The notes: generated from the letters alone by a model not told the origin. DNA of 64,000 nt from Candidatus Colwellbacteria bacterium CG10_big_fil_rev_8_21_14_0_10_42_22 (GCA_002773725.1 PFAH01000005.1:17456-81455), one strand, 5' to 3'; counted from the stretch's first letter, positions 8,603-42,099 are shown. Translations and numbers: made by a program.

Positions 8603-8613
8603 ACAAATCAAAA

Positions 8614-8638: not shown

Positions 8639-8667
8639 AATTTACCTAATTACTTATCAGGACTCAG

Positions 8668-24073: not shown

Positions 24074-24164
24074 CAGTGACAACCTAGTATCGGAGCTGAC
24101 CCGAGAGTCCTGATGAATTGAAGGTTTTGCGTTATCCTTCTATTAGTAAAAGTTTATATCCCAT

Positions 24165-25799
24165 ATGCCAGATTTATCCAACAAAGAACATATGGATCGG
24201 CTCAAGAAGTTCTCGCAGAAGATTAGTCGAGAGTCTTCTATACCCAAGAAATTAGTTGTTGCTGGGCCTGGTGCCGGTAAGACAAAATCTTTTAAAGCAT
24301 TATTGGATGCGCAACCTGCGGATAGTGGGGTGTTGGTATTAACTTTTCTGGGGAATTTAAAGAGGGAGTTGGAGAGGGATCTTGGGCATGCATCGTCAGT
24401 GTTCACGTTCCACGGGTACTGCCATCACTTACTCAGGAAATATGCCGTACTTCGGAGAGGATTAAGTAATGACTTTTTCTACTGTCCAGATTCCCTAGAA
24501 ATAATTAGAGAGGACTGGAAAGTCTTGAATAATGGTGAACCCCCGGACTTTATTTCTCCTCTCCGTTCAAATTTGAAGAACGAACTAACAGAGTTCTACT
24601 TAGACCGTAGTGATTACTACGATGCAATTGGTTTCGACGACTCTATCTTCAGGATTTATCACTCCCTTGCAAGCGAGCCGGAGATTGACTTGTCATACGA
24701 CCTGATACTCATCGATGAATTCCAGGATTTCAATAAACTTGAATCTGATTTTGTCGAGCTGATAAGTAGCCTTGGCCCAATAGTAATTGCGGGGGATGAC
24801 GACCAAGGTTTATACGAAGATAGGTTAGCAAGCCCAAAACATATAAGTGATCTGTATTTGGCGGCAGAATACAAGAACTATGAACTCCCGTACTGCACAC
24901 GGTGTACAAAAGTTATTGTTGATAGTGCAAATAAATTTATGCAAGAGTGCGAAGCCAGAAATATTATTAAGAATAGGATTCCGAAAAAGTTTGAATACTG
25001 CCCCCCGATCAAAGAGATTGATAGCAAACAATATACCTTCATCGAGGTTGTAGAAACATCAGTACAAAGTGGGTCAGTGAATTACTTTGGTCGTTACATT
25101 GAAAGAGAGATCAGAAGTATTCTGCCGGACGATATTGCCAAGTCTCGTAGCGAGGGATTTCTGACTGCATTAATTATCGCCTCTAATCCGTTCCGGCGAG
25201 CTATTGAGGACCACTTTCGGAGTAACCCCGACATTGAGTTGCAAAGCTCCAAGAATGATTTTGAGCCAGTAGATAGAGATACCGCTATAAGGAAGCTCGC
25301 TGACTATCCGAAATCAAATCTATGGTGGCGATTCATTCTCTCGTACGATAAACCTGAGGGCTGGCAGGAGATAGTGAAAGGCAGTACCTCAAAAGATGCG
25401 CTTATTGGACTCGTTCCCGATGAATTCAGAAATTCTGTTTTAGAAGAAGTAAGGGGTCTACGATCACGAGATAGAGCAGATAAAACACCCCAGCCAATAG
25501 ATGAGACAAAGCCCTTAGTAAAAATAGTGACCTTTGAAGGATCAAAGGGGCTTTCTGCTTCGCATGTTTTCATAGCTGGAATGCAAGACGGTACGCTCCC
25601 CAGGAATCCTAAAGAGCCGAGTCATATTGACGCAAAGAAGTTCTACGTTGCACTTACGCGCACTAGGAAGCATTGCCATATTCTTTTCTCAAGAAACTTA
25701 GGAGGTTACAATAATGGCAAACCATCAATCTTTCTCGACTGGATAGATGACGGTAATAAACGAAGTTTGTACGCAGACAAAACATACTTTAATAATTAG
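24165..25799 (+). CDS. UvrD/Rep-like superfamily 1 DNA helicase (compact, 544 aa)
   Basis: Walker A VVAGPGAGKTKSF, motif II LILIDEFQDFN, C-terminal motif VI YVALTRTRKHCHIL; it is the first gene after tRNA-Ser(UGA). Confidence 0.7.
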   Translation: MPDLSNKEHMDRLKKFSQKISRESSIPKKLVVAGPGAGKTKSFKALLDAQPADSGVLVLTFLGNLKRELERDLGHASSVFTFHGYCHHLLRKYAVLRRGLSNDFFYCPDSLEIIREDWKVLNNGEPPDFISPLRSNLKNELTEFYLDRSDYYDAIGFDDSIFRIYHSLASEPEIDLSYDLILIDEFQDFNKLESDFVELISSLGPIVIAGDDDQGLYEDRLASPKHISDLYLAAEYKNYELPYCTRCTKVIVDSANKFMQECEARNIIKNRIPKKFEYCPPIKEIDSKQYTFIEVVETSVQSGSVNYFGRYIEREIRSILPDDIAKSRSEGFLTALIIASNPFRRAIEDHFRSNPDIELQSSKNDFEPVDRDTAIRKLADYPKSNLWWRFILSYDKPEGWQEIVKGSTSKDALIGLVPDEFRNSVLEEVRGLRSRDRADKTPQPIDETKPLVKIVTFEGSKGLSASHVFIAGMQDGTLPRNPKEPSHIDAKKFYVALTRTRKHCHILFSRNLGGYNNGKPSIFLDWIDDGNKRSLYADKTYFNN

Positions 25800-27124
25800 C
25801 TCATGTCTCCTAAAGAAATCTGCATGTTCTGGTAAACAAGCCTACTCCTCAAATTTGCCAGTAAATCTCGCTTCTCACTAACACTCCCTTCTCTGAGCAA
25901 ATACTTCGCATAGGTCTTGAGGTCTATGTCATCTGTGTTTGCTTCCTGCTCGCCATTACCCAAGACAGCGTTTTGGAATTTGTTGAATCTCTTTACCTCC
26001 TCCTGCAACTTCATCTTCATTCCTAACTCATTGATATTTAGTTCATCAACAATCTTTAGTAATTCTTTAATTAGCTCCCCCTCACGAATGTATTTGTTCT
26101 TGCAGTACCTGTCTCTCCCTCGCGTACACCCATAGTAGACATACTTAGCAGTAGTTCCATCTCGCAATTTCTTATATTTCTCTTCGGCCGTTATACCAGA
26201 ACCACATAATCCACAAACCATAAGCTTCGTGAAGGCAAACTCTTTGTTTTCTCGCGTAATCTGGTCGCGTTTCAGATGTGCCTGCACTTTCTCAAATAAT
26301 TCCTGGTTGATAAGGGGCTTGTGTTTCCCTTGATACCAGTTGCCACTCTCTCGCGGATACTCAAAGGTCCCATAGTAGAAAGAATTCTGAAGTGTTCTAT
26401 AGATGCCACTTAATGTGAGCGGCTTGTTTCCTCTCGTCTTAAAGTTCATCTCAAATCGGAGCCAGTGATCCACTTTCCTCCCACTCCACATCTCATACGC
26501 TACTTTCTCGAACATCTGCTTCACGATTGGTGAACGTACAGGATCAATGACTACGTGGCCCTTCTTATCCATGCGATTTTGATTGAGATATCCCAATGGA
26601 GCCACTGTCGGCCAGAGACCCATCTCGCATCGTGTTCGCAATCCTCGTTTAACGTTAATGCCTCTATGGTCATTCTCTAGCTTAGCTTGCGAGCCGAGAA
26701 TCATAAGAAGAAACTTCTCATTTGGGTTGTCTGTAAATCTTTGTCCGTACGTCCGTATTTCGAGAAGCAGCTTCTGGTCCATCAAATCCACAATCGCTCC
26801 AAGGTCCCCAGCGTTCCTGCTCAACCTATCTGGTGCCCACGTTAAAATACCGTTGAATTTCTCCTGGCGAATATCTTCAAGTAGCTCATTAAAGATGATG
26901 CGTTGCCCAGTCTCCTTTGCAGAATGGCTCTCACGCTTCATTTCTACTATCTCTAAGCCCTCTTTCTCTGCGAGTTGGAGCATCTCCTTAACCTGTGATT
27001 CTATCGACAAAGCCTGTCTTTCTTCAGACTCAGATGACTTGCGAGCATATAGGCAGTATTTAACTTTCTCTCGAATCTCTGTGGGGGTAGTCCCCGGACG
27101 TTCTGTTACGGCTGTGTCATCCAT
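25796..27124 (-). CDS. large serine recombinase (resolvase/invertase-type catalytic domain, recombinase domain, zinc ribbon, coiled coil)
   Basis: N-terminal YARKSSESEERQALSIESQ with the catalytic Ser, C-terminal CGLCGS...YYGCTRGRDRYC zinc ribbon, 442 aa. Confidence 0.85.
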   Translation of the reverse strand: MDDTAVTERPGTTPTEIREKVKYCLYARKSSESEERQALSIESQVKEMLQLAEKEGLEIVEMKRESHSAKETGQRIIFNELLEDIRQEKFNGILTWAPDRLSRNAGDLGAIVDLMDQKLLLEIRTYGQRFTDNPNEKFLLMILGSQAKLENDHRGINVKRGLRTRCEMGLWPTVAPLGYLNQNRMDKKGHVVIDPVRSPIVKQMFEKVAYEMWSGRKVDHWLRFEMNFKTRGNKPLTLSGIYRTLQNSFYYGTFEYPRESGNWYQGKHKPLINQELFEKVQAHLKRDQITRENKEFAFTKLMVCGLCGSGITAEEKYKKLRDGTTAKYVYYGCTRGRDRYCKNKYIREGELIKELLKIVDELNINELGMKMKLQEEVKRFNKFQNAVLGNGEQEANTDDIDLKTYAKYLLREGSVSEKRDLLANLRSRLVYQNMQISLGDMS

Positions 27125-27187
27125 ATATACATGAATGACACACCTTCACGGGGCGTCCAGAGAGCCTAGTTGGTAACTTGTAGGTAA

Positions 27188-28663
27188 TTAGATCTTGTCC
27201 ATTTTACCAACTGCCCACGCACTCGTTCTTGCTTCGATTGCCGCGGTGACTGCTATCACAAGCGCATCCACTAAATCATCGTGCCTTTCTGTTCCGAAGC
27301 CGATTAATTGTTCGATGAGTTTTTCGCACCCTTCCATAGGGAATAGAACACGTCCTGATTTAATCCACGCAGAAATCCCTATAAGCCGGGTGCGTTTGTC
27401 CTGTGTTCCTATTTTCACCCCTTTAGCTGGGAAACCGTCCTGTGCAAGTTGCTGTGGGAGGGAGCGTTGATATGCCACATCCTCTACAAGAGCTTCAACT
27501 GGTTTTCCGTCACCGAGCATCGTTGCGTAGTACTTCTCCTCATCGAGAGTTGTTGGAAAATCTATTCTCTTATTGATTGGGTGAGGATGAACATACACCA
27601 CTCGTTGTTTGTCGTGACCGAAGAGAGATACGCCAACTATAGCAGTATAGTCGGCTGTTTCGCGTTCGGAGATAGCAAGATCTATTCCCATCTTTGTCCA
27701 GCGGTATTGGTATCCCTCACGAGGGGGCATCGCATCGTAGTGTTGAATCCATTCCCGCTTAATGACTTGATCTCCAGGAGGGACGATCACCAAAAGAAAT
27801 TCTCTCTTCCAAGCCTCCATACTCCCAATTTTCTTGCGTTCAATCTCAAGCGATTCCTTGTCAGGATATTTGCCAAGCCAGAGGGACTTGCCGTTATCAT
27901 CAACTACTGGATGTGTTCTGAAGATTCCAGTGAGCCGACCATCTTGGATTTCTCTCTCTAGGCGTTTTAGAAGTGAATCTTCGTGGAGGAGGTTGCCAAT
28001 GACTATCATCTTTGTGTTTTGGTCTCCAGCGGGAAGAATATCGCCCTTAAACTTCTGGTATGTCTTATCACGCCCTTCCTGGGTGCGTGTCGACTCTAAA
28101 TCTTCTACATCATCAACAACGATGAGGTCAGGACGATACTGCTTATGTTTCACGCCACGAATACGCTGATCAATTGAAAGAAAGACTATCTTCGCGTCAT
28201 ACCAAGGGAGGTAGAGGGTGTAGTTACCCCATTCATCGCTTTCTTCTTTGAATGGTCCCATATCTCGCCTCAAGAGACTGTTATCTTCTAGCTCTCGTTT
28301 AAGGTTCATGAAGCTGTACTTTGACTGGTGCTGAGTGTCATTGATGACGACCACAAACTTCTTTTTTAGTCTTCCAATAATTGCCCATATAGGGAGAGAG
28401 AGTGAGCAGATGGTGGTCTTCCCGGATCCACGAAATGCTACTGTAACCAGAAAGGAAACCTTCTCATCTCCCGTTAGAGACAAGAGTTCTTTCTGGAAGT
28501 TCGCTGTGGAGTGAGTTACGTGATCTCGCAGATAGATGTGAAAGAACCAAAAGTGACTCTCTCTACCAAGAATTCTGCGGAACGCAGGCTTCTTTATGGC
28601 TCTATCAATTATTGCTTTGAGAACTCCTTCTTTATTCATCTTCTTCATCGTCTTTCGGCTCAT
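27188..28663 (-). CDS. phage terminase large subunit (ATPase + RNaseH-like nuclease)
   Basis: Walker A FRGSGKTT, Walker B LIVVDDVED, C-terminal nuclease acidic residues (GIDLAISE...DDLVDAL). Confidence 0.7.
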   Translation of the reverse strand: MSRKTMKKMNKEGVLKAIIDRAIKKPAFRRILGRESHFWFFHIYLRDHVTHSTANFQKELLSLTGDEKVSFLVTVAFRGSGKTTICSLSLPIWAIIGRLKKKFVVVINDTQHQSKYSFMNLKRELEDNSLLRRDMGPFKEESDEWGNYTLYLPWYDAKIVFLSIDQRIRGVKHKQYRPDLIVVDDVEDLESTRTQEGRDKTYQKFKGDILPAGDQNTKMIVIGNLLHEDSLLKRLEREIQDGRLTGIFRTHPVVDDNGKSLWLGKYPDKESLEIERKKIGSMEAWKREFLLVIVPPGDQVIKREWIQHYDAMPPREGYQYRWTKMGIDLAISERETADYTAIVGVSLFGHDKQRVVYVHPHPINKRIDFPTTLDEEKYYATMLGDGKPVEALVEDVAYQRSLPQQLAQDGFPAKGVKIGTQDKRTRLIGISAWIKSGRVLFPMEGCEKLIEQLIGFGTERHDDLVDALVIAVTAAIEARTSAWAVGKMDKI

Positions 28664-29057
28664 CCGGAACAGCTAAAAGAAGCGCCTGTTTTAAGAGTTT
28701 CGCATCCTCTTCGGATAGCTCAATTTCCTGCCCGACCTTGCCTGTGATGTGCAGTTTCGGTGAGTACGCAGGATGTCTATTCTGCAACCACAATCGGATG
28801 GCTGAAACGTTCTCGTTTTGGATTGCTGAAATGAGCTTGCTCTCAGCCAGATCGTTTAGCCGTTCGAGACCCTCTACTATCGCCCTATCTGTCGCCTGTG
28901 CAAACTTTGGGTCATCTTTCCTCCAACGATAAAAGGATGTCCTCCCAATACCACATTTAGAACACGCAACTTGGATAATTGGTGTTATCTTCAGCTGTTC
29001 GATCATTTTCTCCTTCTGTCGTTCCTGCTTCCTCTCTATTGTCTTATCTTTAGTCAT
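28632..29057 (-). CDS. HTH DNA-binding protein, terminase small-subunit-like
   Basis: 141 aa, HTH (CSKCGIGRTSFYRWRKDD), immediately upstream of and overlapping the terminase large subunit, acidic C-terminal tail. Confidence 0.4.
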   Translation of the reverse strand: MTKDKTIERKQERQKEKMIEQLKITPIIQVACSKCGIGRTSFYRWRKDDPKFAQATDRAIVEGLERLNDLAESKLISAIQNENVSAIRLWLQNRHPAYSPKLHITGKVGQEIELSEEDAKLLKQALLLAVPDEPKDDEEDE

Positions 29058-30393
29058 GATTAATTTTCTTAGCTTTTTTACCGGTAAGTCGCTCCCACCG
29101 GTTCTTTATTACCTCCGCATACGTTGGGACTAACTCCATCATGTTGCATCGGCGATTTAGTTTCTCGGCAACTATAATTGTTGAACCGCTACCTCCGAAT
29201 AAATCGATTACAAGGTCTCCACGCTTTGTTAGAACCTTCATGTATGGGAGAAGAACCTCCACCGGTTTGGTCCCAAAAATTATCGACTGTTGTGAACTTT
29301 TCTCGTCAGCTGCATTGAAGGATATGAAGTCTGTGGGTTGGACTTTCTTGCCCTTCCGATAGCTTTCCCAGGTGGGTTTACCAGATGTAGCAAACAATGC
29401 ATTCTCGTACTCGCTTTGCAAAAATTCATCTGATTCAGGCTCAATATTTAGTTCAACATTTCCTTTAGTCCCGACCAAAGCAATATCAGTTTTATTGAAG
29501 AACTTATATTTAGCTGCGAAGCCCTGTACACGATTCGGGAGGTGCCACGTTATCGTGTTTCTGTATCGCCAGTGTTTTTCGAGCTCTGTCCAAATGACTT
29601 TCAGGTTCTTAGGGTTCTCGAAGACCATTATTGAGAAGTCTTCTTTTTGAATCTGCGCTACATTAGCCATCCACTTTTCCGTGAAATCTGGCGGAAGAAC
29701 GTCTGTCTCAAGGTATTTACGGTCTCTCCTGAGACCGAATCCTTCTGTTGCCTTGCCATGCTTCTTCTTGCCTGTCAGATATGAAAGCAGGTACGGCGGG
29801 TCCACCATACATAAATCCGCTTTCTCTCCATTCATTAGCCTCAGGACATCTTTCTCTAGAGTGCTGTCTCCGCACATTAGGCGATGTTTGCCAAGCTGCC
29901 AGACATCACCCTTTTTCACTTCAATCTTTGTGATGTTCAACTTCTCCAATTCTTTCTGGATGTCGAATTCTTCTGGGCTGTCTTCAATACCGAAGACATC
30001 ATCTAACTCCTCACTTGTGAATCCAATCTCCGAGAGCACATCTTCGTCGAACTCTGCAAGGAGTTGGAAGTCCCACTCTCCTTGGTTGCGGTTAAGCCTC
30101 AGGTTTAGCTCGCGCTCCTTCTCAAGATCCTCTATGTGGAGATAGATGACGGGCACATTTTTTACCCCCATTTCCTCTAGGGCCTTCACTCTCATGTGTC
30201 CGCCGATTATCACTTGCTCCCTTCCCGGTGCGTTATTTACCAAGATCGGATCTACGACTCCGTATCTCTTTAGCGATGTTTTAAGTTGCTCCATATCCTC
30301 TTTTTTGTGTTTACGAGGATTGTATGGTGCTGGTTTAAGTTCCTTTATAGGAACTTGTACGATCTTAAGATCGTCTGGGTTTATTTTGCTCAT
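29050..30393 (-). CDS. ParB-like nuclease domain fused to N6-adenine/N4-cytosine DNA methyltransferase (phage-type orphan MTase)
   Basis: N-terminal ParB motif VIIGGHMRVKAL; MTase motif IV MVDPPYL and motif I DLFGGSGSTIIVAEKL (beta-class order). Confidence 0.8.
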   Translation of the reverse strand: MSKINPDDLKIVQVPIKELKPAPYNPRKHKKEDMEQLKTSLKRYGVVDPILVNNAPGREQVIIGGHMRVKALEEMGVKNVPVIYLHIEDLEKERELNLRLNRNQGEWDFQLLAEFDEDVLSEIGFTSEELDDVFGIEDSPEEFDIQKELEKLNITKIEVKKGDVWQLGKHRLMCGDSTLEKDVLRLMNGEKADLCMVDPPYLLSYLTGKKKHGKATEGFGLRRDRKYLETDVLPPDFTEKWMANVAQIQKEDFSIMVFENPKNLKVIWTELEKHWRYRNTITWHLPNRVQGFAAKYKFFNKTDIALVGTKGNVELNIEPESDEFLQSEYENALFATSGKPTWESYRKGKKVQPTDFISFNAADEKSSQQSIIFGTKPVEVLLPYMKVLTKRGDLVIDLFGGSGSTIIVAEKLNRRCNMMELVPTYAEVIKNRWERLTGKKAKKINHD

Positions 30394-30395
30394 GA

Positions 30396-30794
30396 TTATT
30401 TATTCTTTTGTTTTTTACTTTTTGATTTTTCCGGTTGGTGCCCGGCAAGACTGAGAAATAGTCGGACATCGCTGGCGTTTCCTTTACCGGAGGCAACTTT
30501 CTCGTACAAACCGCCCATAATGTCTGGCGTATGCTCTCGCATCCACTCCTGCAAGAATTGCCATACCAGTGGCCAGAATTCTTCGTGTTTCTTCCAGTCC
30601 GTTAGGGTGTCTTGGTTTACTTTTACTCCGATCTGATCAGCGAATTCCTTCTGCGTTTTTGGCTCGCGGAGCCATTGAGGGAGCGCACACCACCTAGCAA
30701 ATTCGACGAATTCTTGGACTCGTTTAACACCTGGGATAGCAGGAAAAGAATCGGAGTGAATCCGAGTTAGCTGTACGTTTTTGTTTTTACCCAT
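30396..30794 (-). CDS. phage-associated hypothetical protein (first gene of the minus-strand packaging operon)
   Basis: 132 aa, basic C-terminus, 3-nt gap to the ParB-MTase gene; no recognisable motif. Confidence 0.35.
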   Translation of the reverse strand: MGKNKNVQLTRIHSDSFPAIPGVKRVQEFVEFARWCALPQWLREPKTQKEFADQIGVKVNQDTLTDWKKHEEFWPLVWQFLQEWMREHTPDIMGGLYEKVASGKGNASDVRLFLSLAGHQPEKSKSKKQKNK

Positions 30795-30841
30795 CTTTTT
30801 TAAGTAATTGGTTTATTTCGACTTCAGTTCAAACAAAAACA

Positions 30842-30932
30842 CCGACTCTATATAGAGTCGGCATCTGGAAAAGAAAAAAGCTTCGAATCCAGACAATAAT
30901 CTATATAGATTTATATTGTCTTGATTCGAAGC
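30842..30932. promoter_or_regulatory. two palindromic elements in a divergent intergenic region: a 20-bp perfect palindrome (30842..30861) and a ~53-bp near-perfect palindrome (30880..30932)
   Basis: CCGACTCTAT|ATAGAGTCGG is perfect. GCTTCGAATCCAGACAATA...TATTGTCTTGATTCGAAGC has 19-bp arms with one mismatch around an AT-rich core. Both lie upstream of the minus-strand operon start (30794) and before the plus-strand defence operon. Confidence 0.4.
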
Positions 30933-31378
30933 CCTTCCTCACGTTTCCTTTGTGCACGATGGCTCGGAAGCGATTGCAGTCTTTCTTCGGATCTACTGAA
31001 CCTCACTTTTCTCTCTTCTGAATGGCTATGATAGGCCAGGGAGACGAGTGTGTTCTGCCTCAACGGTGTATTTGTAGAACTATCCATAATATACGCCTTA
31101 GTTAGACTATGTGTCAAATGTTGATAACCCGCTTCGCAGAACCCAACGATTAAGCTAGGGTGCCATAGACCAGGAGAAGACTCTTCTGGTAATATGAGTT
31201 TAACAACTGAATAGCCTAACCCTTCCGATTTGGTAGGTATGGCACTAAAGCCGTTGCAGGCATCAAGCTCCTCGTCGGGAGCACCTGCAACGGTCATACG
31301 GGGAAACTCGTGTGGGTGGCTTCGGCCATCGCCTGGCGGGGAGCTTTATGTTCCAGGCCAGGAGAAACCGTTGCAGGT

Positions 31379-32434
31379 ATGGCCATAATTATTTCTAAAA
31401 ACGGCAAGGATGCCAAAAGGGTAGATAAATCTTCTTTTGAGAAAGAGGACAATTTACAAGAGTACATCTACGATAATCCGGAGAGTATTCCGCTATATGA
31501 CATTAAGGAAGATATTCATCTTTTAATCCTCGCTCGCGAGTTTCCTACAAACAGTGGTCCTATTGATGCAATCGGAATAGATAAGGACGGCGATATTTAT
31601 ATTGTAGAAACAAAACTCTATAAGAATTCAGATAAACGTACAGTTGTAGCCCAAGCTCTCGATTATGGAGCAGCTCTTTGGAAGCATTCCAATGACTTCA
31701 ATGAATTCACGGCACGTTTAGATACGGAGGTACAGAGAACTTTTAAAGTCTCGCTGAATGAAAAACTCAGAGACTTCTTCGAGCTCTCAGATGATGAGCT
31801 GACCGAACTCTTAGATCGTGTAAAAGGGAACCTTGATGATGGTATATTACGATTCGTTATATTGATGGATAGCTTAGATGCACGTCTTAAAGACCTCATA
31901 GTTTATGTAAACCAGAATAGCCAATTTGATATCTATGCCGTGGAACTCGAGTATTACAAACACGAGGAGTACGAAATAATTATCCCTAGAATCTACGGAG
32001 CAGAAGTGAAGAAAGACATTAACGTTTTGTCTGGTAAACGTCACAGATGGGATGAGGGGTCATTGTTAGAGGATGCGAAGCAGAAGCTAACCAGCGAAGA
32101 ATTGAGAGCATTTGAGAAGATTTATCAATTTTCAAAAAACAATGCTGACAAGATAAACTTTGGCACTGGTGCATATGCTGCTTTCAGTCCTATATTTTCA
32201 AAATTTAGTAGGATGTCTCTTTTTACTCTTACCACAGACAAACGTTTAGCTTTTAACTTCGAATGGACAGCGAAGATAGATGAAAAAGTAGCAGAACTTT
32301 ACAAAGACAAACTGGAGTCTATTGGGTTCTCGTTTCCAGAAAACTTCAAAGAGATACGCCCAAGTGTACTGCCAGACGAGTGGTTATCCAAAACCGATGG
32401 GTTTCTGAAGATCTTATCGGAGATAATTAAATAG
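31379..32434 (+). CDS. PD-(D/E)XK nuclease-like protein (N-terminal restriction-endonuclease-like core plus helical C-terminal region)
   Basis: IDAIGIDKDGDIYIVETKLY (D...D...E-x-K) nuclease motif; start set at MAIIISK, preceded by an AGGAG-like Shine-Dalgarno; first gene of the operon containing type III mod/res. Confidence 0.4.
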   Translation: MAIIISKNGKDAKRVDKSSFEKEDNLQEYIYDNPESIPLYDIKEDIHLLILAREFPTNSGPIDAIGIDKDGDIYIVETKLYKNSDKRTVVAQALDYGAALWKHSNDFNEFTARLDTEVQRTFKVSLNEKLRDFFELSDDELTELLDRVKGNLDDGILRFVILMDSLDARLKDLIVYVNQNSQFDIYAVELEYYKHEEYEIIIPRIYGAEVKKDINVLSGKRHRWDEGSLLEDAKQKLTSEELRAFEKIYQFSKNNADKINFGTGAYAAFSPIFSKFSRMSLFTLTTDKRLAFNFEWTAKIDEKVAELYKDKLESIGFSFPENFKEIRPSVLPDEWLSKTDGFLKILSEIIK

Positions 32435-32488
32435 AATGACTCTAAAAAATTCCTTGCTTCAACCCCGCCAAGTGGGCATAATCTTGAT

Positions 32489-34711
32489 ATGAGTAGTAAT
32501 CTTTCAGATAACGAAAAAAGAAACATTCTCAAATACATTGAGGCTGGAAAACCACTTCCAGATAAATATAGATTCCTTCTTTTTGAAGATAAGAAAGAAG
32601 TCGAATTGGTGTGGAATGGTAAAACGTCTGAAGTTTCTAATATAGTACTGCCCTTTCAAACAATCGAGGTCGTAGATGAACCACGGGCAGAAGATGCGTC
32701 TGATACGAAAAAGCAAGTACAACCAACTCTTAGAGTAGAACAGGAGTCTCCATTTGATTTTGACGAGCGAGGTAGGCAAATTGCTGGCTGGACGAATAAG
32801 CTTATCTGGGGAGATAACAAGCTGATTCTTTCTAGCCTGAAAAACGGAGTTTTGCGAGAAGAGATTGAGAGAGAAGGCGGACTAAAACTTATTTATATCG
32901 ACCCTCCATTTGATGTCGGTGCAGATTTTTCAATGAAAGTGGAAATTGGCGATGAGGAGCTTACAAAAAAACCAAATGTTCTGGAAGAATTAGCGTATAG
33001 GGATACTTGGGGGAAGGGCGCAGATAGTTTTATCGCCATGATTTATGAACGACTAAGCTTGATGAAAGATTTACTTGCTGATGATGGGAGTATTTATGTG
33101 CACCTTGGAATACAGGTTAACCATTATGTAAGATTGATACTTGAAGAAATATTTGGCAAAGAGAACTTAGTTTCAGAAATTATTTGGGCATATGGTTCGC
33201 CATCTGGTGGAAGAGCTGCAGGAACAAAGTTAGTAAAGATACATGAGTACATACTTCATTTCGCAAAAAATTATAATAATAGAATCGAAAATAAAACCTA
33301 TCTTCCATATAAAGAAGAATATATTAAAGATTGGTTTAAATGGACAGATGCTGACGGAAGGGTGTACCGTAAGCGAATTCGTGGAAAGGACGCTGATGGA
33401 AAACCTGTCTATGAAAAACAATATTTAGACGAAAGTGCTGGAGAGCCAGCTTCAACAGTCTGGAGAGATATAAAACAAATTTACGCCGATCCTAGAGCCT
33501 ATAAATCAAATCAGGGCGATTATAGCGAGATATTAGGATATCCAACACAAAAACCAGAAAAACTTATTGAACGTATTATTAATGCTTCTTCCAATGAAGG
33601 CGATCTTGTCGCCGATTTTTTCTGCGGTTCGGGAACGACACTTGCTGTAGCGGAAAAACTTGGCAGAAAATGGATTGGTTCTGACCTCGGAAAATTCTCT
33701 ATTCATACAACTAGGAAACGAATGATTAATGTGCAGCGAGAATTAAAGAAATCTGGTACCGACTTTCGTGCTTTTGAAATACTTAATCTCGGGAAATATG
33801 AGCGTCAACATTATGTTGGTGTAAACATGAATTTACGTGAAGAAGAGAAACAAAAACAGCTTGCCAAGAAAGAGGCCGACTTTATAGAACTTATTATTAA
33901 GGCATACAAAGCCGAAGCTATTAATAACTTTAAGACATTTGTTGCTAAGAAATCTGGACGATTAGTAGCAGTTGGACCAGTCAATCTACCTGCATCACGA
34001 TTGTTCGTAGAGGAAGTCATTAAGGAATGTATTGATAAACAAATTACAAAAGTAGATATTCTTTCATTTGAATATGAAATGGGACTTTTCCCTAAGATTC
34101 AGGAGGAAGCGAAAGATAAGGGTATCGATCTGGCTCTTAAACATATCCCACGAGAAGTATTCGATAAACGAGCAATTGAGAAAAACCAAGTTCAATTCCA
34201 CGATGTTTCTTATATAGAAGTAAAACCACACATTAAACCCGCTGGGAAAAAGATGGACGGGAAAGTAGCGATAGAACTCACCGACTTCTCCGTTTATTAC
34301 AATCAGGACATCGTTGATAATGTGATTGCTAGCCTTAAGAAGGGATCAGATAAGGTTTTAGTTGAGCAAGGAAATATAATCAAGATAACAAAAGACAAAG
34401 ATGGCATTGTTGAGCAGGAGGTTTTAACGAAGAAATGGACAGATTGGATTGATTACTGGGCAGTGGACTTTGATTTTGAAAGCAAGAAAGAAATTGTTCG
34501 TATAAAAGACGAAAATGGAAAAATTGAAGAAGCTTGGACTGGTAGTTATATATTTGAGAATGAATGGCAGTCTTTCCGAACAAAGAAAGATCGCTCCATT
34601 GAATTAAAAAGTGTTGCGCATGAATGCGAAGCAGGTCGACGTAAAATTGCTATTAAGGTCGTTGATATCTTCGGCAACGATACGATGAAAGTAATTGAAG
34701 TTAATATTTGA
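32489..34711 (+). CDS. mod: type III restriction-modification methyltransferase (Mod), beta-class
   Basis: Motif [11 protein letters not shown] precedes motif [25 protein letters not shown]; 740 aa with a central target-recognition region. Confidence 0.85.
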
Positions 34712-35325
34712 TTTTTATGAAAATTTTGGTCAATTTTTACGCAAACGTAACAGAAGGATCTATTAATGACTTAATCCAGTTCATTACAGTTAAGCTTGCA
34801 CAACAAAACCCAGAAAAACCAATAGATGAGATTATAATTCAGATTTCTAGCTCTGGAGGATCTTCTGACCATGGATTACTTGCGTATAATTTTTTAAAAC
34901 AGATTAGCATTCCAAAGACCACCATAGGTATGGGGAACGTAGATAGCGCAGCCATTATGATCTTCTTAGCAGGAGATAAGCGTTTGGCTATGCCGAGTTG
35001 TAGGTTCGTTCTCCATGAGGCTATTGCAACGATAGGCGGTCAATTCACTGCGACTAAGCTTGGTGAGATGTCGAGGTTGATACAAAGGATTACGGACGAT
35101 TACGTAGAAGTGGTTATAAAAGTAGTTGAAGGCAAAAAAGAATATATCACCAAAGAGGTGAAGAAAGGTTCGGTCCTATCTTCTAACGAAGCTAAAAAAA
35201 TGAAACTTGTCTCCGATATTTTAGAGAAACCATATTTAAGCGAGATGAAAAATTTAGATATTCTATTGATTAATAATCCCAGACAACCGGTTCAACAAAA
35301 GCCAGAGAAAAAGTCAGAAATTTAA
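34708..35325 (+). CDS. ClpP-family (S14-like) serine protease homolog embedded between mod and res
   Basis: Alignable to ClpP: [18 protein letters not shown] ~ NPEKDIYLYINSPGG; [21 protein letters not shown]...RFVLHEA ~ ICMGQAASMGAFLLTAG...RVMIHQP, with Ser and His retained. The ATG overlaps the mod stop (ATGA) and the stop is 2 nt before the res ATG. Confidence 0.6.
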
Positions 35326-35327
35326 TT

Positions 35328-38000
35328 ATGGCATTACATAAAGATTTTCCTAAATCACCTCACGTAATACTAGATCCAGATACTCGTTGGTTTCCTGCAG
35401 ACGAAACTTTACGAGAGAAAGGATATGAAAAACTACTTCCACCCCTTGTTCATATACTTCGTAAGGAGGTAAAGGAATGGCGAGACAAAAACTATAAAGG
35501 GATAAGCGATACTAGTCGTGCTTTGTTACGTTGGTGGTTCCAGGCAGAGCATCCAGTAGAAACACCAGATGGCACAGTCAATTTTCAGTACTATTTTGCT
35601 CAACGAGAGGCAGTTGAAACTGTAATTTATCTATATGAAGTAGCAAAGGTAAAAGATAAATATGACTTGATTCGCTACGACAGTTCTGGAGCAGTTTCTT
35701 CAAGTATGTTTACTGAAGACTGGTTAAGAATGGTTATTAAGATGGCAACAGGGACTGGAAAAACAAAAGTAATGAGCTTACTAGTCGCGTGGAGCTATTT
35801 TCATAAGATGTATGAAGAAGGATCAAACTTAGCTAGGAATTTTCTTCTTATCACGCCAAACATTATTGTGCTCGATCGTATTAAAAGTGATTTCGAGGGA
35901 TTAAAGATATTCTGGGAAGATCCTATTTTACCAGATAATGGCTTTGAGGGGCAAAACTGGAAAGACGATTTTCAGATGACCATTCATATGCAGGATGAGA
36001 TAAATACTGTTCGTAAGACTGGAAATATTTTCTTAACGAATATTCACCGTGTCTATAACAGCAAGGACAATGCGCCTAGCTCCGATGACGATAATACAAT
36101 GGAGTATTTTTTGGGAGATAAGCCCGTGGCTAAAACGGGTGATTCAAAAGTAAACCTTGGTCAAATCGTACGAGATATTGATGAACTTATGGTTATTAAT
36201 GACGAAGCACATCATATTCATGACGAACGACTTGCTTGGTTTAAGTCTATTGAGGACATTAGTAATCGGATGAAAATGAAGGATAAGTTTTTATCCCTGC
36301 AGATTGATGTCACGGCAACTCCGAAACACACTAATGGATCGATTTTTGTACAGACAATCTCCGACTATCCTTTAGTTGAAGCAATCTACCAGGACGTTGT
36401 GAAACATCCCGTTCTTCCTGATTCTGCTAGTAGAGCCAAGCTACAAGAGCACAAAAGCTCAAAATTCACAGAGAGATATAAGGATTATATCCATCTAGGA
36501 TACCTTGAGTGGAAGAAGGTGTATGACGAGCACAAAAAGCTTGGCAAAAAAGCTGTTTTCTTTGTTATGACCGATGATACTAAAAACGGCGATGACGTAG
36601 CAGAATATCTTGAAACTACTTATCCAGAATTTAAAGATGCAATTCTTGTTATTCATACAAAAAACAATGGTGAAATTGCCGAGACTGTAACGGGCAAGAA
36701 AGAAGAAGAATTAAAAGAGCTTAGAAAAGCCTCAAATGAAATTGATAATTTGGAAAGCCCGCACAAAGCGATTGTCTCGGTTCTAATGCTTAAAGAAGGC
36801 TGGGATGTAAAAAATGTAACCACAATTGTAGGGCTTCGTCCGTACTCTTCCAAAAGCAATATTCTTCCAGAACAAACTCTTGGTCGAGGGCTTAGGCGAA
36901 TGTATAGAGATTCCGACGTAACTGAGTATGTAAGTGTTGTGGGGACTGACGCCTTCATGGACTTTGTGGAGTCTATCAAGAGTGATGGGGTTGAGCTTGA
37001 AAAGAAAAAGATGGGAGAAGGCTCTGAACCAAAAGCTCCTCTGATAGTTGAGATTGATAACGAAAATACTAAAAAAGATATTGAGAAGCTGGACATTCAG
37101 ATTCCAGTCCTTACCCCTCGCATATACAGAGAATACAAGAATATTTCTGACTTGGACGTAAGCAAGTTCCCTCACAAGAAAATCAAGATAAAAGAATTCA
37201 GCGAAAAGGAGAAAAGGGAAATTGTATTTCGTGACATTACTTCGGGAGAGATAACGCACGCAACAGAACTTGATAGCAACTTCATACCAAATTATCAAAG
37301 CGTTATTGGTTACTTCGCTCAAATCATCAGAAAGGAGCTCAGGTTAGTCGGAGGACACGACGTCTTATACGAAAAAGTAAAAGAATTTGTAATTAATCAT
37401 CTCTTTGATAAAAAGGTTGATTTAGAAGACCCGAACACCCTACGTAACTTATCTGAGCTCGAAGCAACAAAAACAATAATTGAAACTTTCAAGAAAGAGA
37501 TAAACGAGCTTACTGTTGTTGATAAAGGTGAGGCTGAAATTCGTGATTATATAAAGATTAGTAAATCTCGTCCGTTTGTTATTAAGGAGCAGGGATTCAT
37601 TGTCCCAAAGAAGAGTGTATTCAACAAAATTGTTGGAGATAGCCATTTCGAACTACAATTCGCCAACTTCCTTGAAGAGTGTGACGATATTATCTCGTAT
37701 GCAAAAAACTATTTCGCTGTTCACTTCAAGATCGATTACAAAGATGCAGATGGGAATATCAGAGACTACTATCCTGATTTCTTTGTAAAGGTATCAGAAA
37801 AAGAGATTTATATTATAGAGACTAAAGGACGTGAGGACTTAGACGATGTAGAGAAAATAAAAAGACTGTATCAGTGGTGTGATGATATAAATGCAGTACA
37901 GAATAAAGTTAAATTCACAGCTCTTTATGTGAAACAAGAAGCTTATGAGAAATATAAGCCATCAAGTTTTGCTGAGTTGGTGAAGAATTTCGTCAAATAA
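35328..38000 (+). CDS. res: type III restriction enzyme Res subunit (SF2 helicase-like ATPase + C-terminal PD-ExK nuclease)
   Basis: Walker A MATGTGKTKV, DEAH box MVINDEAHHI, helicase C motifs, C-terminal YYPDF...IYIIETKGRED nuclease motif. Confidence 0.85.
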   Translation: MALHKDFPKSPHVILDPDTRWFPADETLREKGYEKLLPPLVHILRKEVKEWRDKNYKGISDTSRALLRWWFQAEHPVETPDGTVNFQYYFAQREAVETVIYLYEVAKVKDKYDLIRYDSSGAVSSSMFTEDWLRMVIKMATGTGKTKVMSLLVAWSYFHKMYEEGSNLARNFLLITPNIIVLDRIKSDFEGLKIFWEDPILPDNGFEGQNWKDDFQMTIHMQDEINTVRKTGNIFLTNIHRVYNSKDNAPSSDDDNTMEYFLGDKPVAKTGDSKVNLGQIVRDIDELMVINDEAHHIHDERLAWFKSIEDISNRMKMKDKFLSLQIDVTATPKHTNGSIFVQTISDYPLVEAIYQDVVKHPVLPDSASRAKLQEHKSSKFTERYKDYIHLGYLEWKKVYDEHKKLGKKAVFFVMTDDTKNGDDVAEYLETTYPEFKDAILVIHTKNNGEIAETVTGKKEEELKELRKASNEIDNLESPHKAIVSVLMLKEGWDVKNVTTIVGLRPYSSKSNILPEQTLGRGLRRMYRDSDVTEYVSVVGTDAFMDFVESIKSDGVELEKKKMGEGSEPKAPLIVEIDNENTKKDIEKLDIQIPVLTPRIYREYKNISDLDVSKFPHKKIKIKEFSEKEKREIVFRDITSGEITHATELDSNFIPNYQSVIGYFAQIIRKELRLVGGHDVLYEKVKEFVINHLFDKKVDLEDPNTLRNLSELEATKTIIETFKKEINELTVVDKGEAEIRDYIKISKSRPFVIKEQGFIVPKKSVFNKIVGDSHFELQFANFLEECDDIISYAKNYFAVHFKIDYKDADGNIRDYYPDFFVKVSEKEIYIIETKGREDLDDVEKIKRLYQWCDDINAVQNKVKFTALYVKQEAYEKYKPSSFAELVKNFVK

Positions 38001-38015
38001 AACGATCGTTTAGCC

Positions 38016-40841
38016 ATGTTTAATTCTAAAAAGAAAAAAGAGGACAAGATTGACCAAGAGCCTTTTGAGGTTTTAGTAGATAAACCCTTAGAAGATGGAG
38101 AAAAAGATAGATTTGGGCATAGAGAGATATCCAATAGTCTTTTGAAAATAATAAAAAAGTCACCACGCCCCTTTAACATAGGCGTTTACGGACAATGGGG
38201 TGTGGGGAAGAGTACGATATGTAAGCTTGTGCAGAATGAATTAGAGCAAGATGATGATTATAAAGTTATTTATTTTGATACTTGGAAATATGAGCGAGAT
38301 TCGTTTCGTAGGCAATTCTTAATTACATTAGATGAAGAATTGGAACTTGAGCTTCATTATAAAGAGAGACTAAATCAATCCCTTTCTGTCCCCGTTAATT
38401 TGAAGTGGCGCGAGAAATTAAAACTGGTCTTTGGTGATTTATTGTTTAAGTCTTTATCAATTCTTGTAATAATTGTATTAACTCTACTCATTTTTCGGCA
38501 ATCTATACTGCCCTTAATTATGTCGTCTGATTATCTTGAGCTTTCAGAACGGATAGTTGATTTTGGCGTTATCGGTGCTTTAATATCTTTCATTCTAAAT
38601 TCAATTAAACAGTTTACTACTACAAAGACGGTGCATAGAACTGATTCCGCTGAAGGATTCGAGGACCACTTCACTAAAATTTTAGATAAAGTCAAAACAA
38701 AAAACCTAGTGGTGATAATAGACAACCTCGATCGTTTATCAAGTAAAAATGCCGTAGGTCTTTTGGGGGATATTAAAACTTTCTTATCGAATGAGAAGTA
38801 TGGCTTGGATAAACATAAGGTAAGAAACAAAACTTTATTTATTGTTCCTTGCGACAATAAAGCTATCAATGATCAGCTTGTTAAGCAGTATGGGAAACGC
38901 TTCGATTCAGAGGAATATCTAAGAAAATTTTTTAATCACTCGATACAGATACCCAAGTTTCTTGATATTGAGTTGGACGACTTTATTGTTGAGAAGTTGA
39001 ATGACACAAAGATCGAAGTATTTGAGAATAACCTAGAACTCGCTTTTGTCTTGAATTATGCATTTCGAAATAATCCTCGGGAGATTATTCAGTTTGTAAA
39101 CTCTTTGATATCACTTTATCTATTAGCAAGAGAGAGGGGTATATCTCGAGTTATCGAGAAGGATAGAATTGCTTTTCTTGCAAAGGTTTTGGTAGTTAGG
39201 GTCAAATGGCCCAAACTTTATAGCGTTATTGAAGACAGAATATTAAGAACTTCAGATAAATTGGATGAAATAAGTTCACAACTCGATGATAGTTCGGAGA
39301 GTAAGGAACTCACGACATTTCTGGAGTCAACGCCTCACATAAATGATAAGGAATATGAAGACATCTACTTCTCATTGAGGCAAAGTCCCGCACAAAAAGC
39401 GATTCCAGAGTGGGGAAGTTTTGTGATCTCCCTACAGGATGGTCGAAGCAAGGATGTTGAAAGAATATACCTCGATACTAAGCCAGAGAAATTAATAGAA
39501 TTGAGTAAACTCCTTGGTTATTACTGCAGACGTAATAAGAGAAACGAGAACTTACTATTTAATATATTCTTAACATTTCACCCAATAGTAAAAACTGAGG
39601 ATTTGAAGTACTTTCAAAACGTTTTTCTTTTGGCATTTCAAGAAATAAATATTCAAAAATTTGCTGATTCTATAGATAACCTCAAATATTCTTCTATATT
39701 TGCGGATGGCCTCAAGGATATATCTCCATCAAATAAAAAAGAATTCAGTAGACACTTGGTTTCTTTGATAGAGCGACTAACTGCCATAGATAATATAGAG
39801 CGAGAAAAGGTAAGTTCTATAAAAGAAGCTTTCGAGATAGCAAGCAGTGATAAAAATAAAGATAACTTTAGTTTTCTGTTGAGTAAATTATCTCAAGCAA
39901 AAAAACAGTTTTTTAAACAATTGAAGTATCAGGAATTATTTCCAGAGGTAGAAAAAGCCGAAAAATTTCGTAAGGATATATTAGACGATATTCTAGATAT
40001 CCTAACTTCTCTGGGTCCGATAAGTAGCATACATTATGCGGTTGGCCTCGATCTTTTTGGTAATCTATTGCAATGGGCTCCAATTACTGAAGATGATGAA
40101 ATAAGATTTAGCACTCTTGAGAGAAGTTTAGATTTTCTATCAAAATCTACACCACCAAGACCAGCAGACGACACACTGGGCCAGACACTAAGTACATTTA
40201 CTACGCGTATATCTACTTGGTATCAAGCCAATAAAACAACCGAAGAACGTGCTTTGTGTATAAAGATTTTTCAGAAAATTGATCTAGATATTAATCCGAA
40301 CAAAGAACCAAAATCCTCTATACGGGCATACATCTCAGACATTAATAATAAACCAAATGTAATTATTGATGTTTTAGGTAAAGATTTTTTAACCAAAGAC
40401 GGCATTGGTCGGGACGCTTTGATAAATAGAAGTGGAAATTCTTTAGACTTGCTCAATGAGTTGCCTATGAAAACAAGATTAACGAAGGGTGAAAAATCTA
40501 CTATTTTTAATAGTCTTCTAGGAAAAGAGGAAGAGGCACTTTCATTCCTTGAATATGTTAATTATAGTATCCCATCTGAAAACAATGGGAATCAGAACTT
40601 TTTAAAAAACATTGTCCTGAGAATGATAAATGCGAGTAGTTTTTCCGATACGGGGCTCTTGAGAAGATGGCTGGACGCTATTGGCAAATTGGGTGTTCAA
40701 TCGGACCAGGTTGATCCTTTTGTCCAAAAATTGAGACAGACACGTACTTTATCAGATGAACATAAACAAGTCGTTTTAGATTTTGTCAGTAAGAACTCTA
40801 GAGAGTTCGGCGACTTGGTAGTAAAAGAGTTTCAAGAATAA
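38016..40841 (+). CDS. KAP-family P-loop NTPase with inserted transmembrane helices
   Basis: NIGVYGQWGVGKST (Walker A) followed by the KAP hallmark YFDTWKYERD, two TM helices inserted in the NTPase domain, Walker B VVIIDNLDR; 941 aa. Confidence 0.8.
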   Translation: MFNSKKKKEDKIDQEPFEVLVDKPLEDGEKDRFGHREISNSLLKIIKKSPRPFNIGVYGQWGVGKSTICKLVQNELEQDDDYKVIYFDTWKYERDSFRRQFLITLDEELELELHYKERLNQSLSVPVNLKWREKLKLVFGDLLFKSLSILVIIVLTLLIFRQSILPLIMSSDYLELSERIVDFGVIGALISFILNSIKQFTTTKTVHRTDSAEGFEDHFTKILDKVKTKNLVVIIDNLDRLSSKNAVGLLGDIKTFLSNEKYGLDKHKVRNKTLFIVPCDNKAINDQLVKQYGKRFDSEEYLRKFFNHSIQIPKFLDIELDDFIVEKLNDTKIEVFENNLELAFVLNYAFRNNPREIIQFVNSLISLYLLARERGISRVIEKDRIAFLAKVLVVRVKWPKLYSVIEDRILRTSDKLDEISSQLDDSSESKELTTFLESTPHINDKEYEDIYFSLRQSPAQKAIPEWGSFVISLQDGRSKDVERIYLDTKPEKLIELSKLLGYYCRRNKRNENLLFNIFLTFHPIVKTEDLKYFQNVFLLAFQEINIQKFADSIDNLKYSSIFADGLKDISPSNKKEFSRHLVSLIERLTAIDNIEREKVSSIKEAFEIASSDKNKDNFSFLLSKLSQAKKQFFKQLKYQELFPEVEKAEKFRKDILDDILDILTSLGPISSIHYAVGLDLFGNLLQWAPITEDDEIRFSTLERSLDFLSKSTPPRPADDTLGQTLSTFTTRISTWYQANKTTEERALCIKIFQKIDLDINPNKEPKSSIRAYISDINNKPNVIIDVLGKDFLTKDGIGRDALINRSGNSLDLLNELPMKTRLTKGEKSTIFNSLLGKEEEALSFLEYVNYSIPSENNGNQNFLKNIVLRMINASSFSDTGLLRRWLDAIGKLGVQSDQVDPFVQKLRQTRTLSDEHKQVVLDFVSKNSREFGDLVVKEFQE

Positions 40842-40844
40842 TGT

Positions 40845-41951
40845 TTGATGAACTATCTAAAATCAAAGGGGTACTATTCTGACCTTTACGACCAAACGAC
40901 AGTAGAAAGATGTCGTTGGATAGAGAATTTCCACAAAGAATATAAAGCACCGAAGGCGGTAACTAAGGACGCATCCAAAGATGATTTAGAAAAGATTACC
41001 CGCATTACCCTCTATTACGACCTCCTCTTCACTACCGGTGAACGATATCTGAATAAAGAGAAAACAATCCAAGAATGGATTGAGCGAGACACAGCGAAAG
41101 ACGAACTATACAACTCCGCCGAGGCACCCGAGGGCATAAGATGTTTGACTTGTAGCAGTTCGATGACTGCAACATTTAAGGACCTACACAGCCCGGGGCT
41201 TGATGACGCTAAAGACAGGGTTTTTTTCATGTATGACTGTCCGAATAAATGTCTTCCGCGAAGGGCATTCTTTGATGACGGCGAGGAGTGGAAACCTAAA
41301 CCGCATCTTTGTCCTAAATGTGGAAGTGAATTGAAGTCTGATGACGAGCGCAAAGGAAACAAGATTATAACCACGGAGACTTGCGTATCGTGTAGCTATA
41401 AGAAGACAGACGAACTAGATCTGTCTCCCAAGAAAGAGAAAGTAGATAAGGATTTTGAAAAAGACAAAGCCCGTTTCTGCCTTACCGAAGAGAAAGGACA
41501 AGAATATATAAAGACTAAGGGGCAGCTCGAGGGAATGAAGCAGTTAGTAGATGAACTAAAAGAGCGAGATGAGAACAAGGACCTATATGATAAAGTTGCG
41601 AAACTCAAGAAGCTCACAATAGTTCAGTTGCAGAAAACCCTCGCCCCCGTTTTAGAAAAAAAAGGATACATAGACCTCTCTTTTGAGACACCCGAGATGG
41701 AACACGACGTTCGAGTAGCTTTTACCGTAAAAGACGGCAAGGACGGTAGAGAAGAGTACGACAGCCGTATGCAGCTCAAAAAGTCCATTGAGGGGGCTCT
41801 CAGGAGCACTAACTGGCATTTAATGAGCGATGGAGTCACTTATAGGCTAGGTATCCTTATGGGACGGTTAAGAGGCTACGAAAGAGAAGAAGACCTACTA
41901 AAGCTTGTTGAGCGACAGTCGACGGCATCAAAGGTGTCAATAAACCCTTAA
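40845..41951 (+). CDS. hypothetical protein with three C4 zinc-ribbon motifs; KAP NTPase partner
   Basis: CLTCSS...CPNKC, CPKCGSEL and CVSCS cysteine pairs; 4-nt gap after the KAP gene; no family assigned. Confidence 0.4.
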   Translation: MMNYLKSKGYYSDLYDQTTVERCRWIENFHKEYKAPKAVTKDASKDDLEKITRITLYYDLLFTTGERYLNKEKTIQEWIERDTAKDELYNSAEAPEGIRCLTCSSSMTATFKDLHSPGLDDAKDRVFFMYDCPNKCLPRRAFFDDGEEWKPKPHLCPKCGSELKSDDERKGNKIITTETCVSCSYKKTDELDLSPKKEKVDKDFEKDKARFCLTEEKGQEYIKTKGQLEGMKQLVDELKERDENKDLYDKVAKLKKLTIVQLQKTLAPVLEKKGYIDLSFETPEMEHDVRVAFTVKDGKDGREEYDSRMQLKKSIEGALRSTNWHLMSDGVTYRLGILMGRLRGYEREEDLLKLVERQSTASKVSINP

Positions 41952-42099
41952 AATGGAACATTCTCGAAAACCACGTTTTCATGTTCCGTTTGTTCCATTT
42001 GACCCCCGACCCACGAGCCTAAATTCGCTTCTGGAAACAGCCCCAAGAAACCCTTATACTGCCTCATAAGACTTGGTACCAGACCCGAGTCGCCCGCCA

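Follow-up and report, generated by a model that had tools for sequence, protein, structure and literature searches.

A gene for a divergent ClpP-fold serine peptidase between mod and res of a type III restriction-modification operon points to an undescribed protease accessory of DNA restriction in Candidate Phyla Radiation bacteria

A 64,000-nucleotide stretch of the genome of Candidatus Colwellbacteria bacterium CG10_big_fil_rev_8_21_14_0_10_42_22 (GCA_002773725.1, PFAH01000005.1:17456-81455; hereafter the window, with positions counted from its first letter) carries a type III restriction-modification (R-M) operon in which the two subunit genes are parted by a gene for a ClpP-like serine peptidase, here called ClpPl. 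In the six-frame list of open reading frames (ORFs), mod occupies 32489..34711 on the + strand and encodes an N6/N4 DNA methyltransferase of 740 amino acids (aa). It is followed on the same strand by the ClpPl gene (34717..35325; 609 bp, 202 aa, with the start placed by comparison with homologues) and by res (35328..38000; 890 aa), the product of which combines a superfamily 2 helicase with a C-terminal PD-(D/E)XK-type endonuclease. A preliminary description of this DNA had reported a 205-aa ORF at 34708..35325 lying exactly between mod and res, and the frame is indeed open over that interval, from a TTG at 34708. The same description read an ATGA overlap between this ORF and the mod stop at 34708..34711, which was a misreading: the bases are TTGA, the mod stop TGA lies at 34709..34711, and the first ATG of ClpPl is found at 34717, 5 nucleotides (nt) past that stop. 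Because the homologues all open with MK(I/L)L, this ATG is the likely start of the gene. At the other end the junction is as described, with the ClpPl stop TAA (35323..35325) followed 2 nt later by the res ATG at 35328. These gaps, 5 nt to mod and 2 nt to res, are so short that ClpPl is all but certain to share a transcript with its neighbours and to be linked to them in translation. We detected no + strand terminator-like site between the three genes, in a scan that gave no more sites than shuffled sequence did, and the promoter and terminator scan of the operon as a whole likewise yielded no signal above shuffled controls.

The R-M genes of the window are an ordinary type III pair. Mod belongs to the type III methyltransferase class (Pfam N6_N4_Mtase, E 1.2e-45; PADLOC MTase_III, E 8.6e-103), and EcoP15I Mod is among its sequence matches in the PDB. 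Res has the helicase-plus-endonuclease organization of type III restriction subunits: it matches Pfam ResIII (E 2.2e-17) and PADLOC REase_III (E 1.4e-17), and its C-terminal residues 761-846 score just over the cut-off for Tn7_TnsA-like_N (27.2 bits against 26.5) and just under that for RE_endonuc (22.1 bits against 23.4). Res also matches the NCBIfam BPTD_3080-family restriction endonuclease in part (E 2.5e-84), with a score under the curated cut-off. The order of the genes, mod then res, is that of canonical type III systems such as EcoP15I. What departs from the two-gene layout of such systems is the 609-bp ClpP-like gene between them.

A direct comparison comes from plasmids of the Rhizobiales. 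Over their full length, Res of the window is 64-66% and Mod 61% identical to the products of genes on Aminobacter pANY103c and Sinorhizobium medicae pSMED02. In these orthologous operons (L046, pANY103c 36175..40979; L047, pSMED02) mod and res overlap by 1 nt and ClpPl is absent, whereas in the window the protease gene stands in place of that overlap. Because the plasmid operons consist of overlapping mod and res only, the protease is, as judged by comparison of the sequences, an insertion into a canonical two-gene type III system in the Candidate Phyla Radiation (CPR) loci that we found. The same comparison implies that this type III R-M family was transferred between phyla.

The similarity of the middle ORF to ClpP, which the preliminary description had noted, is far above chance. 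Profile search, one of the checks it had proposed, returned a strong match to Pfam CLP_protease (PF00574; E 4.5e-21, 76 bits against a cut-off of 20.2), with residues 10-174 aligned to positions 21-181 of the 182-position profile, and the four peptide strings quoted earlier as ClpP-like are all present in the translation. An AlphaFold2 model built with 25 relatives as input reached a pLDDT (predicted local distance difference test) of 89 and a pTM (predicted template modelling score) of 0.84. The best 50 Foldseek matches to this model in the PDB are all ClpP, with TM (template modelling) scores of 0.72-0.81 and a root-mean-square deviation of about 2 Å, and the model has both the ClpP alpha/beta fold and the helix of the handle region. 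The interval 34717..35325 is thus a real gene, and its product is a divergent serine peptidase of the ClpP fold.

The active site of ClpPl retains most, but not all, of what is found in ClpP. Conservation was computed over 96 full-length relatives that are 37-78% identical. The catalytic Ser and His, reported earlier as present, both align with the ClpP triad (Ser77, codon 34945..34947; His100, codon 35014..35016), but the triad is incomplete, with Gly151 (codon 35167..35169) at the position of the Asp. Ser77 and His100 are invariant in 96 of 96 relatives, as are Arg89 and Arg96. The oxyanion pair Gly47-Gly48 is Gly in 89 of the 96, the other seven being mistranslated entries from code-25 organisms that show Trp. 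Asp51 and Asp76 are also invariant, and His52 almost so, which gives the family the motifs GGSSDH and NVDSAA. On this alignment, the Ser/His/oxyanion site is under strong constraint. ClpPl begins at the first core beta-strand (hence the start of the alignment at profile position 21), lacks the N-terminal axial loops that form the gate, and carries an added, conserved C-terminal tail (PYL..L.IL.INNP...).

Compared with housekeeping ClpP (MEROPS S14; E. coli, S. aureus), ClpPl shares the fold, the catalytic Ser and His, the GG oxyanion motif, the conserved Arg and the handle helix. It is, however, only 20-26% identical to these proteins, has Gly for Asp, misses the N-terminal 20 or so profile positions, possesses the extra tail and its own invariant motifs, and is a rare gene of R-M operons with no ClpX or ClpA neighbour. 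Its best score against the NCBIfam housekeeping ClpP equivalogs is 74.9 bits against a cut-off of 228, and against the ClpP equivalog TIGR00493 it scores 51.7 bits against 308.6. Because the triad Asp, the N-terminal gate and the equivalog score all fail, we file ClpPl outside ClpP proper, as a distinct ClpP-fold subfamily that is both Asp-less and gate-less. Listeria monocytogenes ClpP1 (4ryf, 4jcr), which is among the best structural matches of the model, also has an incomplete triad, with Asn for Asp. Listeria ClpP1 has nevertheless kept its N-terminal region, and it functions together with ClpX as a ClpP1/P2 heterocomplex, whereas ClpPl has no second ClpP paralogue beside it. Other ClpP-like proteins, a broader set from a representative search (P0106-P0120), are also Asp-less and start at the first beta-strand, and several of them bear N-terminal leaders resembling signal peptides or those of lipoproteins. 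This suggests a broader, uncharacterised Ser/His ClpP-fold group of which ClpPl may be one part.

Two further observations concern the sequences of the family. The seven database entries with Trp at otherwise invariant Gly positions (P0062, P0066, P0076, P0079, P0083, P0084 and P0085; for example SSSWWSSDH) stem from recoded lineages of the Gracilibacteria/Absconditabacteria type and had been mistranslated with code 4; when 3632..4252 of locus L045 was retranslated with code 25 (UGA = Gly), the Gly residues were restored. The extreme C-terminus (35290..35322 in the window) tracks clade and context across loci. Members of the type III-associated group, a few of which are now located outside R-M operons, end in ...[KNR][KNS][SA]E[IV]-COOH; most of the type I-associated clade ends in ...Q(S/T/A)xQT, and a clade never found with R-M genes is variable here. 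Such a pattern could reflect a docking motif or mere phylogenetic signal.

Relatives of ClpPl are few. A search of 5.8 billion proteins recovered about 100 of them at 37-100% identity, and every relative with a source-named organism comes from the CPR/Patescibacteria (Wildermuthbacteria, Colwellbacteria, Parcubacteria, WWE3, Peregrinibacteria and Minisyncoccia); titles of metagenome-assembled genomes in the genome collection add Saccharibacteria and Peribacteria as carriers. A collection of 185,579 species genomes yielded no more than 9 loci. In an exhaustive profile search, about 7 clusters at 50% identity scored well above the general continuum of ClpP-like proteins. No relative was found in the viral contigs of IMG/VR, and a search of the plasmid collection gave one weak match to an ordinary ClpP. 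Canonical clpP and clpX were found neither in the window nor in any fetched locus, a sample too small to say that the hosts lack them, and the WWE3 genome paper of Kantor (2013) makes no mention of Clp. ClpPl is thus a small, rare and sporadically distributed accessory family; its rarity, its sub-threshold equivalog scores and its mobile contexts led us to reject the idea that it is the housekeeping ClpP of CPR bacteria.

The genomic company of ClpPl was surveyed in loci from the genome collection (9), from metagenomes (25) and from exact look-up, of which 32 were informative after duplicates had been collapsed. Retrieval relied on two conserved peptide patterns, many of the contigs are short, annotation of the neighbours drew on BLAST comparison with the proteins of the window and on Pfam and PADLOC, and ORFs were called under table 11, which leaves code-25 lineages under-annotated. 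ClpPl lies inside or beside R-M genes in 20 of the 32 loci. Ten of these, the window included (with L003, L005, L011, L036, L032, L037, L038, L039 and L044), share one type III family in which ClpPl separates mod from res, in some cases along with further cargo. The mod-protease-res arrangement, whose recurrence had been named earlier as a point to check, is therefore no one-off, being seen in about 10 independent type III loci. Two loci (L009, L012) pair ClpPl with a second type III-like family made up of a different N6_N4 methylase and a ResIII helicase, and four (L008, L026, L030, L043) have the type I order hsdM-(Bro/Fic)-hsdS-ClpPl-(orf)-hsdR. Three are of type II or probably so: a methylase, a CfrBI-like nuclease and ClpPl in L025; a methylase, a MutH-like protein and ClpPl in L041; and a Dam-like methylase with ClpPl in L017, the probable case. 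The last (L013) is a decayed type III operon. Outside R-M, two loci have other defence-like neighbours, namely an OLD/AriA/GajA-like ATPase in L007 and a MazG-like protein with a SLFN/DUF2075 helicase in L045.

In the window and about 15 further type I or type III loci, ClpPl is the gene between the specificity or modification gene and the restriction gene. Its junctions are tight in 11 loci besides the window; the ClpPl start codon there touches or overlaps the stop of the preceding gene, and in these loci and in the window the next gene opens 1-7 nt past the ClpPl stop or overlaps it. That next gene is mostly R, and in L043 it is another inserted gene. The true ATGA overlap with mod once ascribed to the window does exist in L044, L036, L011 and L037. 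Traces of former operons also persist: a 25-aa remnant of the Res N-terminus lies just downstream of ClpPl in L013/L002, and a 17-aa remnant of the Mod C-terminus just upstream of it in L041. The two kinds of context, R-M and non-R-M, are interleaved in a neighbour-joining tree, which has a clade of type I loci, a largely type III group and a single clade (L042, L007, L021, L024, L006, L040, L023) that never occurs in R-M operons. Genes for dnaK, ychF and lexA adjoin ClpPl in some of the loci without defence neighbours; dnaK does so in L018, and lexA lies directly upstream in the same orientation in L042. In the decayed type III locus L013, lexA is a divergent neighbour. The earlier proposal of a three-component type III variant survives insofar as ClpPl is inserted into a canonical type III operon, but the same family occurs elsewhere. 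Because it is also found with the second type III-like family, in type I and type II operons, beside other defence genes and as a stand-alone gene, ClpPl is a portable accessory rather than a type III subunit.

Two minor features of these loci may be recorded here. A small protein of 98-121 aa with one predicted transmembrane helix and a coiled-coil, matching no Pfam family, is encoded directly upstream of ClpPl in three type III loci (L003 7652..8017; L038 1946..2242; L039 4644..4997), and its restriction to these three led us to reject it as an obligate partner. In L008, from Peregrinibacteria, the type I hsdR downstream of ClpPl is split into 7809..8639 and 8636..10795 in different frames, by a frameshift or as a pseudogene, while its orthologue in L043 is intact at 1035 aa.

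Both genes embedded in R-M operons and control of the restriction subunit by host proteases are already known. The gene for the anticodon nuclease PrrC lies between specificity/modification and restriction genes in the EcoprrI locus. To our knowledge, no R-M system encodes its own protease. Full-text searches of the literature turned up no account of R-M operons with a ClpP-like gene, which is not proof of absence, and a review of the R-M field from 2025 names host ClpXP and phage homologues of ClpXP only. Like PrrC, the toxin-antitoxin pair DarTG2 fills the hsdS-hsdR slot of a type I system, in enteropathogenic E. coli (EPEC; PMC12255303); neither is a protease, and ClpPl differs from both in occurring in type III and type II operons as well. 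The nearest functional precedent is restriction alleviation in type I systems (EcoKI, EcoAI and those of P. aeruginosa), in which restriction is kept in check as a Clp-type or other cytoplasmic protease removes R. HsdR of type IA and IB systems is degraded by ClpXP on establishment and after damage (PMC12707154), and in P. aeruginosa both HsdR and HsdMS are broken down by Lon-like proteases (bioRxiv 10.1101/2024.10.21.619520). These are host housekeeping proteases that act in trans with AAA+ unfoldases, and their role has been shown for type I only, whereas ClpPl is encoded in the operon itself and its turnover of R is hypothetical.

We favour the reading that ClpPl is an operon-encoded protease that limits the restriction subunit with which it is made, and would give it a probability of roughly 0.4. 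ClpPl would probably assemble into a ClpP-like ring, with an active site formed by the Ser77-His100 dyad and the oxyanion Gly-Gly, without the canonical Asp and without an axial gate. Produced together with the restriction subunit of its own operon, it would turn over R, or R engaged on unmodified host DNA, and so limit restriction by that operon, as an operon-encoded equivalent of ClpXP- or Lon-dependent restriction alleviation. The chromosome could in this way be protected when a mobile R-M island enters an unmethylated host, or after DNA damage or hypomethylation. We prefer this reading because the association spans R-M types yet centres on the junction with R, because ClpPl travels with mobile R-M islands that need to become established in unmethylated hosts, and because lexA and dnaK, with their link to DNA damage and stress, adjoin some of the stand-alone copies. 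A more sweeping proposition is that mobile R-M systems of CPR bacteria carry a dedicated, ATPase-independent ClpP-type protease that removes R, a self-contained restriction-alleviation (anti-autoimmunity) module with which type I, II and III systems might establish without host ClpXP or Lon; this we advance more tentatively.

Several points weigh against a protease that limits R, the first being that the substrate of ClpPl is wholly inferred. ClpPl is found with type II nucleases, CfrBI-like and MutH-like, that have no fold in common with Res or HsdR, and since these nucleases are unrelated to the other proposed targets, a common mode of substrate recognition is hard to picture. The catalytic machinery itself raises doubt. 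The position of the triad Asp is Gly in 85 of the 96 relatives, Ser in 6 and Trp (Gly under code 25) in 5, and it is never acidic; loss of this Asp weakens or inactivates canonical ClpPs, as in Listeria ClpP1. Canonical ClpP uses its N-terminal region for gating and for contact with ClpX or ClpA, and this is the region that ClpPl misses. As no AAA+ unfoldase is conserved beside ClpPl in the loci examined and the region for gating and ClpX contact is gone, ClpPl may cut only peptides or unfolded chains. Nor is the slot peculiar to the protease: the junction between M or S and R is a general hotspot for unrelated cargo in ClpPl loci, where Fic, Bro-N, DUF3800, the small transmembrane/coiled-coil protein and unannotated ORFs of 86-424 aa are found, as DarTG2 is in EPEC. 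Because the slot hosts such unrelated cargo, position alone is no proof of a functional tie to R. Finally, ten loci (L004, L006, L015, L018, L021, L027, L029, L033, L040 and L042) have no recognisable R-M or defence neighbour.

Several of these same observations could be read as signs of an independent embedded defence effector of the PrrC or DarTG kind, a second-line abortive-infection protease for which the R-M operon serves as carrier or latency holder. The protease would be released when a phage disables restriction and would then carry out ungated proteolysis of host or phage proteins. ClpPl sits in the slot of prrC and of DarTG2, shares that slot with Fic, Bro-N and DUF3800 cargo, and is found beside the non-R-M defence-like genes of L007 and L045. 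It also lacks the N-terminal gate that restrains uncontrolled proteolysis in canonical ClpP. Clp-like protease domains are listed among the effector domains of other conflict systems (PMC7159879). Toxicity is, however, hard to square with stand-alone copies beside dnaK, ychF or lexA that have no sensor or antidote, and a conservation of 50-78% identity across distant CPR lineages is unusually high for a defence effector. The PADLOC-DB v2 models gave ClpPl a match at noise level only (E 0.0031, 14 bits). Because of the stand-alone copies and the high conservation, a controller fits better than a toxin, and we regard the effector as unlikely, though it is the main rival.

The stand-alone copies bear differently on the view that ClpPl is a general-purpose or hitchhiking protease, for example a stress or SOS peptidase, tied to R-M by co-mobility only. 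The ten loci without any defence neighbour, the clade that never enters an R-M operon and the presence of lexA and dnaK as neighbours in some loci would all suit such a protein. Simple co-mobility accounts poorly, however, for an R-M association in 20 of 32 loci that extends over four unrelated architectures with junctions of 0-7 nt, or for the retention of ClpPl exactly at the coupled mod/res junction, and a family so rare among species genomes is not a housekeeping one. We consider this explanation doubtful, and distinctly less plausible than an effector.

Activation of Res or Mod was among the suggestions of the preliminary description. A protease that processes Res, HsdR or Mod to its active form, and so delays restriction relative to methylation, could draw on the same synteny and coupling evidence as a protease that limits R. 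Yet Res orthologues of the same length (64-66% identical) work in two-gene operons without a protease, no extra pro-segment is evident in the CPR Res, and the type II partners are unrelated proteins; a role in maturation or activation is accordingly quite improbable. Least probable of all is that ClpPl is an inactive scaffold with a ClpP fold, or the remnant of a prophage head-maturation protease. The missing Asp, a weak match to the NCBIfam ClpP-related head maturation protease (NF045542, E 2.1e-11) and a terminase-like gene elsewhere in the island might suggest as much, but the conservation of Ser, His, both Arg and the oxyanion Gly-Gly described above argues against it. Phage prohead proteases have the ClpP fold and are often N-terminally truncated too. 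The head-protease score of ClpPl, however, is 44.1 bits, far under the cut-off of 120 and below the scores to cellular ClpP, no capsid, portal or other structural genes are adjacent, no relatives were found in IMG/VR and viral ClpP-like folds are no closer than cellular ones, which led us to reject the prophage origin.

Proteolytic control of restriction enzymes is a classic yet narrowly documented mechanism, in which host ClpXP in E. coli and Lon-like proteases in P. aeruginosa remove HsdR and guard against self-restriction. If ClpPl acts on R or M, the control of autoimmunity would belong to the R-M module as a portable component, and ClpPl would offer a tractable system for the study of restriction timing after horizontal transfer. 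If ClpPl is instead a PrrC-like effector, an ungated ClpP-fold protease would join the abortive-infection repertoire. Either way, ClpPl defines a new Asp-less and gate-less ClpP subfamily. It also suggests that CPR bacteria, most of which have no CRISPR and depend on R-M, possess defence biology specific to their lineage, and it points to a hitherto undescribed protease accessory of DNA restriction.

In the window, the operon is part of an apparent mobile island (about 24075..42099) between tRNA-Ser(tga) and tRNA-Ala(tgc), with housekeeping genes on both flanks. Its GC content is 0.34-0.38 over 32-40 kb, the part with the R-M genes and a KAP-family NTPase gene, against about 0.41-0.43 in the flanks. 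On the - strand the island has genes for a large serine recombinase (25796..27124), a protein resembling the large subunit of terminase (27188..28663) and a ParB-N6/N4 methylase fusion (29050..30393); a UvrD-like helicase and helix-turn-helix proteins are also encoded in it. Downstream of res on the + strand lie the gene for the KAP-family P-loop NTPase (38016..40841; 941 aa, with partial QatA, PDC-S20 and PifA-like matches) and orf368 (40845..41951; 368 aa, no family match), which follow with gaps of 15 and 3 nt and probably make up a defence module of their own within the same transcription unit. No other ClpPl locus has either gene beside ClpPl, and for this reason we rejected the KAP NTPase as an unfoldase partner of ClpPl. 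Large serine recombinases adjoin the ClpPl-bearing R-M genes in L005 and L044 as well as in the window.

Directly upstream of mod lies a PDC-S11/NucS-like ORF (31310..32434, + strand) with PADLOC matches to PDC-S11 and PDC-S18 and a weak NucS_C/Cas4-like nuclease signature. A LOOT RNA motif (Rfam RF03000; 31213..31330, + strand; 83 bits against a gathering score of 46, E 3.3e-14) sits in the gap just upstream of this ORF. A NucS_C-like gene is also found downstream of res in L036.

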